Below, one piece after another: positions 1 through 6,412 of a stretch of 6,412 nt of DNA (within the stretch, counting starts at the first letter, position 1; each line of letters starts with the position of its first letter). This stretch comes from a virus (lineage: Duplodnaviria; Heunggongvirae; Uroviricota; Caudoviricetes): the IMG/VR virus record IMGVR_UViG_2690316210_000006, one strand, 5' to 3'. Below the pieces are notes generated by a model that ran no database searches, was not told where the DNA came from, and saw nothing but the letters and a program-made list of their open reading frames with translations. The translations under genes were made by a program, and so were the position numbers.

Positions 1-31
1 GACAATCCAAATGGCGAATTACCGTCTTATA

Positions 32-358
32 TCACTGGCGCTGACACTTCATCACCTCCGGACGTAAATCACCATCCTTTGGTGCATTCAGAAACGCGTT
101 CAGTGTCCCCGGTGCATCAGTCGGTGCCACATCAATATCCCCGACACGGGTTGGCTGCCAGCCGTTACAGTGAAGCGCAACCTCGTAATACCCCGGCTCA
201 GCCTCAATCACATAAGCACCGTTATTGTCCGTCACGCAAGTGGCAACAACGTGTGCCACAACGGTCGGACTGGTTCTTCTGGCCCGCAGTTCAATCGCAC
301 AATTTACGACAGGTTTACCCGCCCCATCTTTCAGTACACCTGAAATCTTTACTGCCAT
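32..358 (-). CDS. Side-tail-fibre (Stf) N-terminal-domain-like protein, 108 aa, ending at a TGA 31 nt from the window edge; possibly a truncated stf remnant
   Basis: Minus-strand ORF; from the internal Met the product begins MAVKISGVLKDGAGKPV..., matching the recalled N-terminus of lambda Stf, with PGTLN.FL and RPEV motifs also conserved. ATG at 356-358 is preceded by GGGGTGAAT (SD-like, ~5 nt spacing). The longer ORF-track start at 400 would overlap a terminator-like hairpin. Position after lom matches lambda order J-lom-stf. Confidence 0.55.
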   Translation of the reverse strand: MAVKISGVLKDGAGKPVVNCAIELRARRTSPTVVAHVVATCVTDNNGAYVIEAEPGYYEVALHCNGWQPTRVGDIDVAPTDAPGTLNAFLNAPKDGDLRPEVMKCQRQ

Positions 359-369
359 ATTCACCCCAC

Positions 370-394
370 AAAAAGCCCGCCTGAACCAGCGGGC
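370..394 (-). terminator. Putative intrinsic terminator downstream of lom (hairpin plus U-tract)
   Basis: On the minus strand: GCCCGC-TGGTTCAG-GCGGGC (6-bp perfect stem, plus-strand 375-394) followed by TTTTT (plus-strand A-run 370-374). Lies between the lom stop (422) and the stf-like start (358). Confidence 0.4.
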
Positions 395-421
395 AGTCAT
401 AACACTGTGTTACCTGGCTAA

Positions 422-1021
422 TCAGAACTTATAACCGACACCCACGATGAAACCGTCAGTGCGCCAGTCACCACTGCCGGAACCTTCATAAGCAAGGTCA
501 ATGGCCACGGATTCGGTCGGGTTAAACTGCACGCCAGCCCCCCACGCCAGAGACGTGTTGCTGTGGCGACCGCCATCACTCCCGGTCAGCACATCGTGCG
601 TTTTCCCCTTGTTGTCAGTTACGCGGAGATAATCCCCGGAGAAGGTCGACACACGGCTGTAAGCCACGCCCGCCATCGCATACGCGCTGAACCATTCATT
701 CACGCGCACAGACGGCCCCGCCATCACGCTGAACCAGCGGTTACGCACGGAATCCTCATGCCAGCGGGTATCGCTGTAATGCGTTTTTTGCTCATCTTCA
801 GCGTTGGCATAACTGAATGACGTAATCAGCCCCAGCGTGTCCGTAAACTCATAACGGTATTTCACGTTAATGCCCTTCAGGTCATCGCTGCCTGGCATAT
901 CAGTATGGGTCTGAAGATACCCGGCGCTCAGCGTGGACTGATGTTCAGACGCCCATGCAGGCGCACCGGATACGGCCAGGCAAATGGCTGCGGACAAAAT
1001 GGCTGCACAAACTTTACGCAT
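422..1021 (-). CDS. lom: Lom outer-membrane beta-barrel protein (Ail/Lom/PagC family), 199 aa, intact
   Basis: Minus-strand ORF; protein MRKVCAAILSAAICLAVSGAPAWASEHQ... is near-identical to recalled lambda Lom. Sec signal peptide with an AWA cleavage motif; C-terminal ...GVGYKF with terminal Phe typical of OMP beta-barrels. SD GAGAGG about 5 nt upstream of the ATG. Sits directly downstream of the J stop as in lambda. Confidence 0.95.
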   Translation of the reverse strand: MRKVCAAILSAAICLAVSGAPAWASEHQSTLSAGYLQTHTDMPGSDDLKGINVKYRYEFTDTLGLITSFSYANAEDEQKTHYSDTRWHEDSVRNRWFSVMAGPSVRVNEWFSAYAMAGVAYSRVSTFSGDYLRVTDNKGKTHDVLTGSDGGRHSNTSLAWGAGVQFNPTESVAIDLAYEGSGSGDWRTDGFIVGVGYKF

Positions 1022-1042
1022 AATTACCTCTCGCTTTTCTGC

Positions 1043-1070
1043 AATAAAAAAGGCACCATTTCTGGTGCCC
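1043..1070 (-). terminator. Putative intrinsic terminator between J and lom (copy 1)
   Basis: Minus strand: GGCACC-AGAAAT-GGTGCC (plus-strand 1052-1069) followed by TTTTTTATT, starting 20 nt after the J stop codon. Confidence 0.6.
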
Positions 1071-1088
1071 GTATCTGGGTTATAAAAT

Positions 1089-2522
1089 TCAGCTAATCGT
1101 GATGCCTGCAGTGGCTTTCTTCATCACCACAACCAGCAAATCGCTGATACTTGCTGTGGGATACCAGCCATTTACCAGCCATGCCGATACAGAAAACTCC
1201 AGCGTCATGTGACCGTGACCGGCAGGCATATCAATAACACCCGTATATATCAGCGTATTATCCAGGGTCGTTCGGTTATAAATTTCAGCACCGTTTTTCT
1301 TCACTATCAGGCGGCATGACGAATAAATATTGTTATTCTTCCGCTCATGTTTAGCACCGCGAAACGCCACCGCGGGAATAACAATTTGCCGATCAAACGG
1401 CTGATCGTCATAAACCCTGACGGTAATGGTCCCTGATGGCCACCTCTCCGGTGCCCGGGAGTCCCGTGGGAAAGGTTTGCCCACTGTTTTAACGAGATCG
1501 CCTTCAATCTGGTTCGCGGACAATTTTCCCAGAACCCGACAGTTCTTATTAATCGTGACGTTGTTGAGCGTCCCGGAGTTCGCGTTCACGTTACCGCTGA
1601 TATCGGCATTTTTCGCCGTCAGCCGCCCGTCCGGTGTCAGGGAAAATGCCGGAGGATTACCGCCGCTGGTAATGGTCGGAGCCGTCAGGCATTTCAGGAA
1701 CACGTCGTTCATGAATATCTGATCGCCCTGACCAACAAACATCGGCTTTGTGTTGCCATTCGCAGGATTAATCATCGCAATCCTGTCTGCCGCCAGCAGC
1801 ACCTGACTCTGCATTCCTGCTGGCGTATTCTCAATACCGGCACCGATACCCGCAATATAAAGGCGTCCGTCCTTCATCTGTTGCAGCTTCACAGCCCACA
1901 TGCTGTTCAGGTTATTATTTGTATCAACCTGAACTTTCTGTATCTGCTGGATTGCAGCACTCTGATTTTCCAGTTTTTTATTGACGGTTTGCGTGATTTC
2001 ATTGCTGACATTCGTAATGGACGTCCTGATTTCAGTCAGGTCCGGCGCAAGCTGACCGTTATCAATCTGCGTCCACAACTCCTTGCCGAGATGCGTTTTA
2101 TTGATCAACCCTTTATAAAAATTCAGATAACCTTCTGCATCATCGCTCGCCCGACCGATGGCCTCCACAAATGCCGATTTGCCAACGGTGTTCACACTGC
2201 GAACGTAAAAATAATAATCATGGCCCGGCCTGATATTGATACTGGCGGCTATCCAGTACAGCGCCGTGCCAAGATAGCGTGCTGTGGTTTCAACCTGCCT
2301 GATATCCGCAATCCGCTTTTCCGAGAACCAGAACTCAAACTGTACCGTCGGATCATAAACCGCAAGATGCGGCGTGGCGGTTATCTGAAAATAGCCCGGC
2401 GTCAGCTCAATCCGCGACAGCGCTGCCGGTGCGGCAATCCGGAACGATACCGACGCCGGATCGCCCTGCTGCCCCCACGCATTTACTGCCCGGACTGTCA
2501 GCCTGTAGTTCCCCAGCGCCAG
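1089..2522 (-). CDS. J: Host-specificity / tail-tip protein J, C-terminal ~477 codons (allele 1), 5'-truncated at the ambiguous base 2523
   Basis: The minus-strand frame reads [32 protein letters not shown]...[12 protein letters not shown]...[25 protein letters not shown]... to ...[10 protein letters not shown] then TGA (1089-1091), collinear with the recalled lambda J C-terminal region. The ORF-track start at 2195 is an in-frame GTG (Val in J), not a real start. Confidence 0.85.
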
Positions 2523-2523
2523 N

Positions 2524-2919
2524 GGTCAGCACATCGTGCGTTTTCCCCTTGTTGTCAGTTACGCGGAGATAATCCCCGGAGAAAGTCGACACACGGCTGT
2601 AAGCCACACCCGCCATCGAATACGCGCTGAACCAGCGGTTACGCACGGAATCTTCATGCCAGCGGGTATCGCTGTAGTGCGTTTTTTGCTCATCCTCAGC
2701 ATTGGCATAACTGAAGGACGTAATCAGCCCCAGCGCGTCCGTAAACTCATAACGGTATTTCACGTTAATCCCGTTCAGATTATCGCTGCCGGGAGCGTTC
2801 GTACGGGCATGAAGATACCCCGCGCTCAGTGTGGACTGATGTTCAGACGCCCATGCAGGCGCACCGGATACGGACAGACAGATGGCTGCGGACAAAATGA
2901 CTGCACAAACTTTACGCAT
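2524..2919 (-). CDS. lom: Lom-family OMP, second allele, N-terminal fragment only (truncated at ambiguous base 2523), with a 42-bp in-frame deletion relative to copy 1
   Basis: ATG at 2917-2919 with the same SD context as copy 1; product MRKVCAVILSAAICLSVSGAPAWASEHQ...; aligns to copy 1 positions 584-1021 apart from a 14-codon deletion and scattered substitutions. The frame then runs across N2523 into out-of-frame J sequence. Confidence 0.75.
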
Positions 2920-2940
2920 AATTACCTCTCGCTTTTCTGC

Positions 2941-2968
2941 AATAAAAAAGGCGCCATTTCTGGCGCCC
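2941..2968 (-). terminator. Putative intrinsic terminator between J and lom (copy 2)
   Basis: Minus strand: GGCGCC-AGAAAT-GGCGCC (plus-strand 2950-2967) followed by TTTTTTATT. Same position as the copy-1 terminator, with a compensatory stem change. Confidence 0.6.
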
Positions 2969-2986
2969 GTATATGGGTTATAAAAT

Positions 2987-4249
2987 TCAGCTGATACTGA
3001 TGCCTGCGGTGGCTTTCTTCATCACCACAACCAGCAAATCGCTGATACTTGCTGTGGGATACCAGTTATTCACCAGCCATGCTGACACCGAAAACTCCAG
3101 CGTCATGTGGCCGCGACCAGCTGGCATATCAATAACACCACTGTAAATCAGCGTATTATCCAGCGCGGTACGGTTATAAATTTCAGCACCGTTTTTCCGT
3201 ACTATCAGGCGGCATGACGAATAAATATCGTTATTCTCCCGCTCATGTTTAGCGCCGCTGAATGCCACCGCCGGAATAACAATCTGCCGGTCAAACGGCT
3301 GATCGTCATAAACCCTGACGGTGATGGTCCCTGATGGCCACCGTTCCGGTGCACGGGAGTCCCGGGGGAAAGCTTTGCCCACTGTTTTAACGAGATCGCC
3401 TTCAATCTGGTTGGCGGACAATTTTCCCAGAACCCGACAGTTCTCGTTAATCGTGACGTTGTTGAGCGTCCCGGAGTTCGCATTCACGTTACCGCTGATA
3501 TCGGCATTTTTCGCCGTCAGCCGCCCGTCCGGTGTCAGGGAAAATGCCGGAGGATTACCGCCGCTGGTAATGGTCGGAGCCGTCAGGCATTTCAGGAACA
3601 CGTCGTTCATGAATATCTGATCGCCCTGACCAACAAACATCGGCTTTGTGTTGCCATTCGCAGGATTAATCATCGCAATCCGGTCAGCAGCCAGAAGCAC
3701 CTGACTCTGCATACCTGCTGGCGTATTCTCAATACCGGCTCCGATACCCGCAATATAAAGGCGTCCGTCCTTCATCTGCTGCAGTTTCACGGCCCACATG
3801 CTGTTCAGGTTATTATTTGTATCAACCTGAACTTTCTGTATCTGCTGGATTGCCGCACTCTGGTCTTCCAGTTTTTTATTGACGGTCTGCGTGATTTCAT
3901 TGCTGACATTCGTAATGGACGTCCTGATTTCAGCCAGGTCCGGCGCAAGCTGACCGTTATCAATCTGCGTCCACAACTCCTGGGCCAGATGTGTTTTCCC
4001 GATTTCTCCTTTGAAAAAATCCAGGTAACCTTCCGCATCATCGCTCGCCCGACCGACAGCCTCCACGAATGCCGATTTGCCAACGGTGTTCACACTGCGG
4101 ATATAAAAGTAATAATCATGGCCCGGTTTGATATTGATACTGGCGGCTATCCAGTACAGCGCCGTACCAAGATAGCGGGCTGTGGTTTCAACCTGCCTGA
4201 TATCGGTAATCCGCTTTTCCGAGAACCAGAACTCAAACTGTACCGTCGG
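2987..4249 (-). CDS. J: Host-specificity protein J, C-terminal 420 codons (allele 2), from PTVQFEFW... to stop; joined upstream to another J segment at ambiguous base 4250
   Basis: Continuous minus-strand frame [28 protein letters not shown]...[32 protein letters not shown]...[10 protein letters not shown] with TGA at 2987-2989. About 95% amino-acid identity to allele 1, with many synonymous nucleotide differences. Confidence 0.85.
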
Positions 4250-4250
4250 N

Positions 4251-4969
4251 GGTGTCAGGGAAAATGCCGGAGGATTACCGCCGCTGGTAATGGTCGGAGC
4301 CGTCAGGCATTTCAGGAACACGTCGTTCATGAATATCTGATCGCCCTGACCAACAAACATCGGCTTTGTGTTGCCATTCGCAGGATTAATCATCGCAATC
4401 CTGTCTGCCGCCAGCAGCACCTGACTCTGCATTCCTGCTGGCGTATTCTCAATACCGGCACCGATACCCGCAATATAAAGGCGTCCGTCCTTCATCTGTT
4501 GCAGCTTCACAGCCCACATGCTGTTCAGGTTATTATTTGTATCAACCTGAACTTTCTGTATCTGCTGGATTGCAGCACTCTGATTTTCCAGTTTTTTATT
4601 GACGGTTTGCGTGATTTCATTGCTGACATTCGTAATGGACGTCCTGATTTCAGTCAGGTCCGGCGCAAGCTGACCGTTATCAATCTGCGTCCACAACTCC
4701 TTGCCGAGATGCGTTTTATTGATCAACCCTTTATAAAAATTCAGATAACCTTCTGCATCATCGCTCGCCCGACCGATGGCCTCCACAAATGCCGATTTGC
4801 CAACGGTGTTCACACTGCGAACGTAAAAGTAATAATCATGGCCCGGTTTGATATTGATACTGGCGGCTATCCAGTACAGCGCCGTGCCAAGATAGCGTGC
4901 TGTGGTTTCAACCTGCCTGATATCCGCAATCCGCTTTTCCGAGAACCAGAACTCAAACTGTACCGTCGG
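4251..4969 (-). CDS. J: Host-specificity protein J internal segment (third copy, 719 bp, PTVQFEFW... to ...[10 protein letters not shown]), allele-1-like, bounded by N4250 and the N-run
   Basis: Same reading frame as the J copy downstream; the sequence matches 1633-2351 almost exactly and 3531-4249 at ~95%. Forms the N-terminal part of the 608-aa ORF-track entry 2987..4813. Confidence 0.8.
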
Positions 4970-5152
4970 NNNNNNNNNNNNNNNNNNNNNNNNNNNNNNN
5001 NNNNNNNNNNNNNNNNNNNNNNNNNNNNNNNNNNNNNNNNNNNNNNNNNNNNNNNNNNNNNNNNNNNNNNNNNNNNNNNNNNNNNNNNNNNNNNNNNNNN
5101 NNNNNNNNNNNNNNNNNNNNNNNNNNNNNNNNNNNNNNNNNNNNNNNNNNNN
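4970..5152. other. Run of 183 ambiguous bases (assembly gap or masked sequence) inside the J reading frame
   Basis: Directly visible as n characters. Its length is close to the ~185 nt of J coding sequence expected between the flanks (STARTTET upstream, PTVQFEFW downstream). Confidence 1.
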
Positions 5153-6412
5153 GTGGTTTCCGTCGTCCGGGCCGTGCTGACCAGTCGCTCACTGCCGTCG
5201 TCCGCTGTTACGGTCAGACGGAGCAGGAAGCTCACGCCCTTCACCACCTTCGGCGTGTCCCAGCGCGCCAGCACCTGATATTCCCCGCTGTCTGCAGTGA
5301 CTTCGGCGGTCAGGTGCTGCACTGCTGGCGGCGTGACACCATTCACCGTGCCGCTCTGGTCACCGTCAAAGTGCGCCCCGTTATCCACGATGGCTTCTTT
5401 CTCCGGTACATGCTGCACGGCGGTGATGGCATACGTGCCGTCATCGTTCTCACGGATACTCACGCAGCGGAACAGGCGCTGGCGCAGCGTCGGCAGCTTC
5501 AGCCCCCACACGCTGTATTCTGCAACGCCGTCAGGAACACGGCTCACTTTCACCTTCACGCCGTCGGTGACGGACTGGACCTCCACGCTGACCGGATTAC
5601 CCTGACCGTCAACCAGGCTTATCAGCGTGGTACCGGAGGATGGCAGCGTGATTTCACGGTCGAGCGTCAGCGTCCGGGTCTGGCTGTTCACCGCCAGCAC
5701 GCGCCCGCCGGTGCTGATACCCGCATAGTCATCATCGCAGATTTCAATGACATCCCCCGGTACATGGCGAAGCCCTTCCGCACCCACGCTGAAGTCCACG
5801 GTCTGCGTTTCCAGCAGTTCCGTTTTAATCAGCCACAGCCCGGCGCGGTGCGCCTGCCCCCGGCTGGTACAGCCAAAGGCATCCATCTTCGTGACGTTAC
5901 GACCGTAACGGNACAAGCTCTGTCGCCGTCTCCCAGCCGTTATCCGGGTCAATCCAGTTCACCTCAACGGCATTATGACGGTCCTTCAGGGCACTGAAGC
6001 TGTAGCGGAACGGCGCGCCATCATCCGGCATCACCACATTACTGCGGTTATAGGCCCACACCTTATCCGACTGTCGGTCCTGCACGAACGTCAGCGTCTG
6101 CCCGTTCCATACCGGCATACAGCGCATCGCCGAGCAGAAATCACTGAGAACATCCCACGCCTTGCGCTGTGTGGTCAGGTAGGCATTACAGGTGATGCGC
6201 GGCTCCGTGCCACCAAAGCCATCCGGCACCGACTGGTCGCAATTCTGGCCGATGACATACAGCGCCCATTTGTCCACATCCGCCGCACCGAGACGCTTCC
6301 CCATGCCGTAGCGCGGATGGGTCAGCATATCCCACAGACACCAGGCCATGTTGTTGCTGTATGCCGGTTTTAGCGTTCCGTCCCAGATACCGCTGTATTG
6401 CCGCGTCTGCGG
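5153..6412 (-). CDS. J: Host-specificity protein J, central region (5'-partial at window edge), with a frame break at ambiguous base 5912
   Basis: Minus-strand translation gives ...MAWCLWDMLTHPRYGMGKRLGAADVDKWALYVIGQNCDQSVPDGFGGTEPRITCNAYL...NAVEVNWIDPDNGWETATEL, then after N5912 in another frame RYGRNVTKMDAFGCTSRGQAHRAGLWLIKTELLETQTVDFSVGAEGLRHVPGDVIEICDDDYAG...LVSTARTTET, collinear with recalled lambda J. Confidence 0.9.

Follow-up and report, generated by a model that had tools for sequence, protein, structure and literature searches.

The DNA considered here is a 6,412-nt stretch, called the window below, of the Caudoviricetes record IMGVR_UViG_2690316210_000006 in IMG/VR. It carries an apparent head-to-tail repeat of J, the tail tip or host specificity gene of a lambdoid prophage, and of lom, an outer-membrane beta-barrel gene. 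False duplications of diverged alleles in genome assemblies are typically separated by gaps, which lie where identical sequence gives way to divergent sequence (Ko et al., 2022; PMC9516828). Homologous prophage content in Escherichia coli is not resolvable by short reads, and in compound or tandem prophages of E. coli O157:H7, two copies of the tail genes in one chromosomal region recombine (PMC10925052). An earlier note on the window had preferred a chimeric join of contigs from paralogous prophages and had named, as the other option, that the host-range module is truly rearranged in tandem. We consider it very probable that the repeat is a draft-assembly artifact, in which redundant contigs of several similar prophages were joined by N placeholders.

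The window resembles false (‘heterotype’-like) duplications in several respects. Copies diverged by a few percent stand side by side in one scaffold with assembly gaps between them, breakpoints fall at transitions between identical and divergent sequence, and the outcome is false gene gains together with false truncated genes (PMC9516828). Every boundary carries Ns, the blocks are overlays of one locus, and their junctions are absent from gap-free assemblies. Unlike the described cases, the copies would be paralogous prophage alleles in a haploid bacterium rather than diploid haplotypes, and the gaps are mostly single Ns. The O157:H7 cases also bring together copies of tail genes, but they are whole prophages or multi-kb segments, lie tens of kb apart and were verified with long reads (PMC10925052), whereas the window consists of truncated pieces of 0.7–1.7 kb that abut at Ns.

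In gene content the window follows the lambda-type J–lom–stf module of lambdoid E. coli and Shigella prophages, including Shiga toxin (Stx)-converting ones. It shares the gene order and orientation, the J domains, a full-length Ail/Lom protein, a phage_tail_N domain and a hairpin between J and lom. It differs in that an IS21-family element interrupts the stf gene of allele A after about 104 codons and lom of allele B has a 14-codon deletion. There is no functional departure from the known module. We see no novelty in the window, which reads as a single ordinary lambdoid J–lom–stf region to which scaffolding has attached pieces of two further alleles.

Blocks of the window and their overlay on one locus

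Ns occur at 2523 (one), 4250 (one), 4970–5152 (183) and 5912 (one). Between them lie five blocks: A (1–2522), B (2524–4249), C (4251–4969), D (5153–5911) and E (5913–6412). Every block boundary is an N. Blocks B and C each begin right after an N and end right before one, and both end at the same homologous base (A-equivalent 2351). The junctions had been placed earlier at N2523, N4250 and the N run from 4970, and the block ends coincide with these positions exactly. The fourth lone N, at 5912, was absent from that list.

We compared the repeats by k-mer diagonals and by direct block-to-block comparison. A 584–694 and B 2524–2634 are 97.3% identical (3 mismatches in 111 nt), and A 727–2351 and B 2625–4249 align without gaps at 92.9% identity (116 mismatches in 1625 nt). 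The segments 584–2351 and 2524–4249 are thus collinear copies, as had been claimed, with B 93–97% identical to its counterpart in A. The further claim that 4251–4969 is a third copy of a 719-bp J segment also holds: C matches A 1633–2351 at 99.6% identity, with three mismatches (A 2211, 2229 and 2230). At all three C has the B base, and C and B 3531–4249 are 94.4% identical overall. The length and identity of the similarity among A, B and C are far above chance. Codon changes between A and B comprise 50 synonymous and 23 non-synonymous ones, and each block is an intact reading frame with no internal stop. Because the blocks are stop-free and the A/B changes mostly synonymous, the copies look like functional paralogues rather than decaying duplicates.

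As a reference we took the single intact J–lom locus (L001) of the complete genome NZ_CP065615.1 and placed the blocks on it by BLAST. Block A (47–2522) falls at L001 6001–8476, B at 6538–8305, C at 7587–8305, D at 8493–9251 and E at 9273–9772. B and C lie wholly within the range of A. The other three blocks follow one another along a single J gene, separated by holes of 16 nt (A to D) and 21 nt (D to E). The order of the five blocks in the window is the order of their start coordinates on L001, which is the order expected of mutually overlapping contigs laid on one axis.

The same overlay appears at the protein level. All J pieces are on the minus strand, and we counted Pfam domains above the gathering score. 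J of allele A (1089–2522) corresponds to residues 683–1159 plus the stop codon of the reference protein (97% by tblastn). Its Pfam domains (1092–2522) are Ig_J (profile 73–104 only), Ig_J_second, Phage_Tail_Tip and Ig_GpJ_C. J of allele B (2987–4249) covers residues 740–1159 plus the stop codon and is a redundant overlay of A 1089–2351; J of allele C (4251–4969) covers residues 740–978 and is A-like, with the B state at the three sites given above. Block D (5153–5911) holds residues 425–676, with Phage-tail_3 (profile 94–162) and Ig_J (profile 1–66) at 5155–5910, and presumably represents the shared, collapsed part of all alleles. Block E (5913–6412) holds residues 251–416, with Phage-tail_3 (profile 1–85) at 5915–6412. 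Ig_J is therefore divided between D and A, and Phage-tail_3 between E and D; the profile positions missing from the divided domains are just the few that match the 16- and 21-nt holes.

If the window were taken as a genuine tandem, prophage recombination would have produced the order J 5′ part–C–B–truncated lom–J fragment A–lom–truncated stf, and the Ns would be low-quality bases. Prophage tail regions that are homologous are known recombination substrates in E. coli (PMC10925052), and the blocks are free of internal stops. The end of A, however, continues into D at both the nucleotide and the domain level. Three N-free IMG/VR contigs (L128, L131 and L133) contain window 1–2522 at 98.4–98.6% identity followed by D after 16 nt, and two of them (L131 and L133) have the whole of E after 21 more nt. 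The true partner of the end of A is thus D, 2.6 kb away. The earlier statement that J allele 1 lacks its 5′ part is correct only locally; the 5′ continuation of A is held by blocks D and E in the same window. The size of the N run also argues against the tandem order. All intact copies examined have 187 nt between the end of B and C and the start of D (A 2352–2522 plus 16 nt), and the gap at 4970–5152 is 183 Ns, matching the skipped sequence. Finally, the copies are 5.6–7% diverged, unlike a recent tandem duplication. We regard a genuine tandem as highly improbable.

The lone N at 5912 shows what a single N may stand for. It occupies the place of 21 nt of J (residues 417–424). J is read in frame 1 (mod 3) in block E and in frame 0 in block D, and counting the N as one base gives a frameshift and an open reading frame that stops at 5897. 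Because 21 nt are missing at N5912 and the J frame is broken there, we read the single Ns here as join placeholders, not ambiguous bases. N5912 is unrelated to the repeats and serves as an internal control for the meaning of a lone N. Several scaffolders put a single N or n where the gap estimate is zero or negative and the overlap cannot be merged. Against a genuine tandem, all three repeat junctions and an unrelated fourth one coincide with Ns, and no junction is crossed by uninterrupted sequence.

Reading the junctions literally gives products of little coherence. The N at 2523 separates J residue 683 of block A from the equivalent of lom codon 146 in block B; read as a base, it shortens Lom by its final 53 residues and runs it, out of frame, into the middle of J; what remains of that J copy is a fragment lacking both promoter and 5′ part. 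A literal tandem therefore comes with a frameshifted J and a truncated Lom. The C–B junction is the only one in frame.

Junctions and stacked blocks in other genomes

Neither repeat junction was found elsewhere. Junction 1 (2523), searched with a 401-nt query, occurred in 0 of 5,426 complete E. coli genomes, where the query had 25,055 partial places, and in 0 of 50,697 phage records; as an exact pattern with a 0–12-nt spacer it had no match in IMG/VR. Junction 2 (4250), searched with a 70-nt query, occurred in 0 of the same 5,426 genomes (13,795 places), and its exact pattern had no match in IMG/VR or in 185,579 GTDB species representatives. The normal continuation of the same left flank, used as a positive control, was present in at least 120 IMG/VR contigs. 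The arrangement expected of a genuine tandem was thus absent from independent contiguous genomes and from the phage records, IMG/VR and the GTDB representatives wherever each junction was searched.

Two sets of apparent matches were set aside. Queries of 401 and 100 nt for junction 2 had given 3,543 and 450 genomes, respectively, at 80% coverage or more. Each long-query match that was listed falls into two pieces over a span of 719 or 635 nt; the pieces are permuted halves of one single-copy segment combined by place-merging, and the 70-nt query replaced these searches. A partial match to junction 1 (H16/L138; NZ_CP076305.1 2912361–2913632) is a degenerate prophage with normal J-to-lom order and was rejected. 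In that locus, J has undergone a real internal deletion that leaves only two small pseudogene fragments of it immediately upstream of an intact lom.

We fetched 137 related loci and looked in them for repeated copies of the diagnostic J segments. None of the 129 N-free loci had such stacking, and four of the eight N-containing loci did. Three of the four, L068 (IMGVR_UViG_2700989365_000006), L098 and L129 (IMGVR_UViG_2698536366_000004), hold stacked partial J or J–lom blocks, and L123 (IMGVR_UViG_2671180353_000009) has a doubled block of lom and the J 3′ end. In all four, the block boundaries are a single N or lie at most two bases from one. In L129 the sequence begins anew at A-equivalent 582, two bases off the position where block B of the window starts. 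The nearest relative of block A is itself one of these loci, L123, at 99.6% identity over 1–1873. The restriction of stacking to N-containing loci argues against a genuine tandem. Stacking thus recurs across draft assemblies of one class and is no trait of genomes, which suggests a systematic pipeline artifact in public viral-contig collections.

Taken at face value, the scaffold displays a tandemly duplicated host-range module, a truncated lom, J fragments and a frameshift, all of them false. The occurrence of N-delimited stacking in at least four other draft-derived IMG/VR contigs (the loci just named) is a data-quality warning. Surveys of tail-fiber or J diversity, of ‘gene gain’ or of pseudogenes that draw on such records would be inflated.

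Origin of the layout

The following course of events would account for the window, read as a draft-genome scaffold and not as one continuous molecule. The source genome would carry three or more lambdoid prophages that are 93–99.6% identical in the J 3′ end and lom. The assembler may have produced one long contig for one allele (block A, with the IS21 end, the stf remnant, lom and the J 3′ part), left the stretches specific to the alleles of two other prophages as short contigs of their own (blocks B and C), and collapsed the copies of the better conserved J 5′ part into shared contigs (blocks D and E). A scaffolder, paired-end or reference-guided, would then have ordered the five contigs, all from one coordinate range of a J–lom locus, by start position on one axis, writing one N for a zero or negative gap estimate and 183 Ns for a positive one. 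The real prophage structure would be an ordinary lambda-type J–terminator–lom–stf region, with allele A running E–21 nt–D–16 nt–A. What software was used, and that the alleles are paralogues within one genome, we infer. The single N written for a 21-nt hole and the 183 Ns written for 187 nt look more like a noisy paired-end estimate than a reference-derived gap.

Several observations weigh against an assembly origin. The contig joins are deduced rather than observed. The block ends lie 42, 60 and 151 nt from the nearest A/B variant, which is not one de Bruijn k-mer overhang. The hole between D and E is written as one N and not as about 21. At 4250, where the start of the J fragment of block B meets the end of block C, the literal reading is in frame: 719 + 1 = 720 nt, or 240 codons, giving an open J with an internal duplication.

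The in-frame state of junction 4250 has a one-in-three chance of arising by accident. It is the point that favors a mixed reading, in which the C–N–B junction is real and the other joins are placeholders; a 240-codon A-type copy of J residues 740–978 would then be inserted in frame before a B-type J C-terminus. If true, this would be a recombination-built, lengthened tail-tip protein with two diverged central segments, since residues 740–978 span the end of the second immunoglobulin (Ig)-like domain and much of the tail-tip fiber region. We judge it unlikely in the extreme. The in-frame junction is likewise all that speaks for the real tandem rearrangement proposed as an alternative in the earlier note. 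The chimeric join that it preferred is supported by the overlays, the pairing of A with D, the agreement of 183 with 187, N5912 and the absent junctions.

An attempt to name the assembler from the block overhangs was dropped, as 42, 60 and 151 nt fit no one k-mer size. The block ends adjoin sites that are polymorphic among natural J–lom alleles: 581 (T/C), 1632 (C/T/A) and 2352 (A/G in the B-type reference). These sites would fit contig breaks at points of allele divergence, though they are not diagnostic, and they hint at a possible fourth allele elsewhere in the assembly.

Alleles, genes and other features

Complete E. coli genomes match the J–lom segment at a median of three places and at up to 17. 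Phage genomes have one J–lom place each (252 places in 246 records). Apart from the deletion described below, the J–lom segment of allele B is 99.7% identical to many genomes of the extraintestinal pathogenic E. coli (ExPEC)/B2 type, including the E. coli type strain ATCC 11775. Alleles A and C are closest (98–98.9%) to a few complete genomes, among them O121 strain 201805972, CFSAN029787 and FDAARGOS_943/944. FDAARGOS_943 has an ipaH effector gene near the matching prophage.

The differing nearest relatives of B and of A and C are compatible with prophage mobility or, less likely, with a mixed sample. Under the latter, the layout would still be an artifact, but the alleles would come from a mixed or contaminated sample of two strains whose variant contigs were scaffolded together; that the relatives lie in different E. 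coli backgrounds agrees with this. Lambdoid prophages are, however, mobile and mosaic, and single genomes routinely have 3–17 J–lom places. In FDAARGOS_944 the copies most similar to A and to C are on one chromosome at a distance of 2.7 Mb, and no other feature of the window suggests a mixture. A mixed sample is very unlikely in our view.

Read errors in allele A were also considered as the source of allele C and rejected: the three differences of C match B, and both three-site haplotypes (the A and the C state) are common among natural loci. C is thus a genuine third natural allele. The sequences indicate that J in the source genome has three or more different C-terminal alleles, and that the lom linked to one of these lacks 14 codons.

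That deletion removes 42 nt, in frame, from lom of allele B at 2624/2625, relative to A 695–736, where allele A has them. The indel is bordered by a 10-nt direct repeat, CGCTGAACCA. Apart from the 42 nt, lom of allele B is 100% identical to ExPEC genomes, and the closest complete genomes among the matches listed (99.7%) retain the 42 nt. An identical deletion junction is found in three N-free IMG/VR contigs (L135–L137) on an A-like background, and an assembly error as the source of the gap was rejected on this ground. A recurrent natural slipped-strand deletion in lom is suggested.

All genes of the window are on the minus strand in the order J–lom–stf, the end of the tail operon of lambdoid prophages. 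RefSeq annotates the corresponding genes of the best-matching complete genomes as gpJ (phage attachment tail tip protein J), an Ail/Lom family outer-membrane beta-barrel protein and a prophage tail fiber N-terminal domain protein. The gene content described earlier (J 3′ end, terminator and lom) is borne out by Pfam and RefSeq. The J blocks are 94–98% identical to RefSeq gpJ in amino acid sequence. The J domain series runs to the C-terminal receptor-binding domain, and Ail/Lom and then the side-tail-fiber gene follow downstream on the same strand. The same order is annotated in L001, L122 and phages, and the closest GenBank phages are lambdoid and Stx-converting E. coli phages (91–93% identity).

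The lom gene of allele A (422–1021, minus strand) is complete and encodes a 199-aa Ail/Lom outer-membrane beta-barrel protein (Pfam Ail_Lom 1–199 of 199, E-value 4e-129) with 97% amino acid identity to a RefSeq Ail/Lom protein. The lom gene of allele B (2524–2919, minus strand) covers only positions 1–146 of the 199 in the Ail_Lom profile; it is without its last 162 nt, where the contig would end. The missing 3′ end had been noticed before.

On the minus strand between J and lom, each allele has a hairpin that is followed by a T run and resembles an intrinsic terminator. In allele A (1051–1070) it reads GGGCACCA-GAAA-TGGTGCCT followed by TTTTTATT, and in allele B (2949–2968) GGGCGCCA-GAAA-TGGCGCCT. 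The two differ by a compensatory pair (GGGCACCA/TGGTGCCT versus GGGCGCCA/TGGCGCCT) that preserves the stem. Downstream of lom, at 375–394 on the minus strand, lies a further terminator-like hairpin followed by a T run.

The truncated stf-like side-tail-fiber gene (35–358, minus strand) matches Pfam phage_tail_N at positions 1–104 of 134 (E-value 1e-36). The remnant has about 104 homologous N-terminal codons and then KCQRQ*, read from the end of the insertion sequence. Its homologue in RefSeq is a 470-aa ‘prophage tail fiber N-terminal domain-containing protein’, and the homology ends at window position 47. An IS21-family insertion evidently cuts the stf-like gene in allele A. The IS21-family terminus itself is at 1–46; the 1.6 kb adjoining this terminus is annotated as istA/istB of the IS21 family at 100% identity. 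These 46 nt precede at least five different flanks in 12 IMG/VR contigs, and the start of the window is probably a contig end. None of the 12 contigs matches the window identically, and the first 40 nt had no match in the GTDB representatives. Contigs of several other assemblies also terminate at the same 46 nt.

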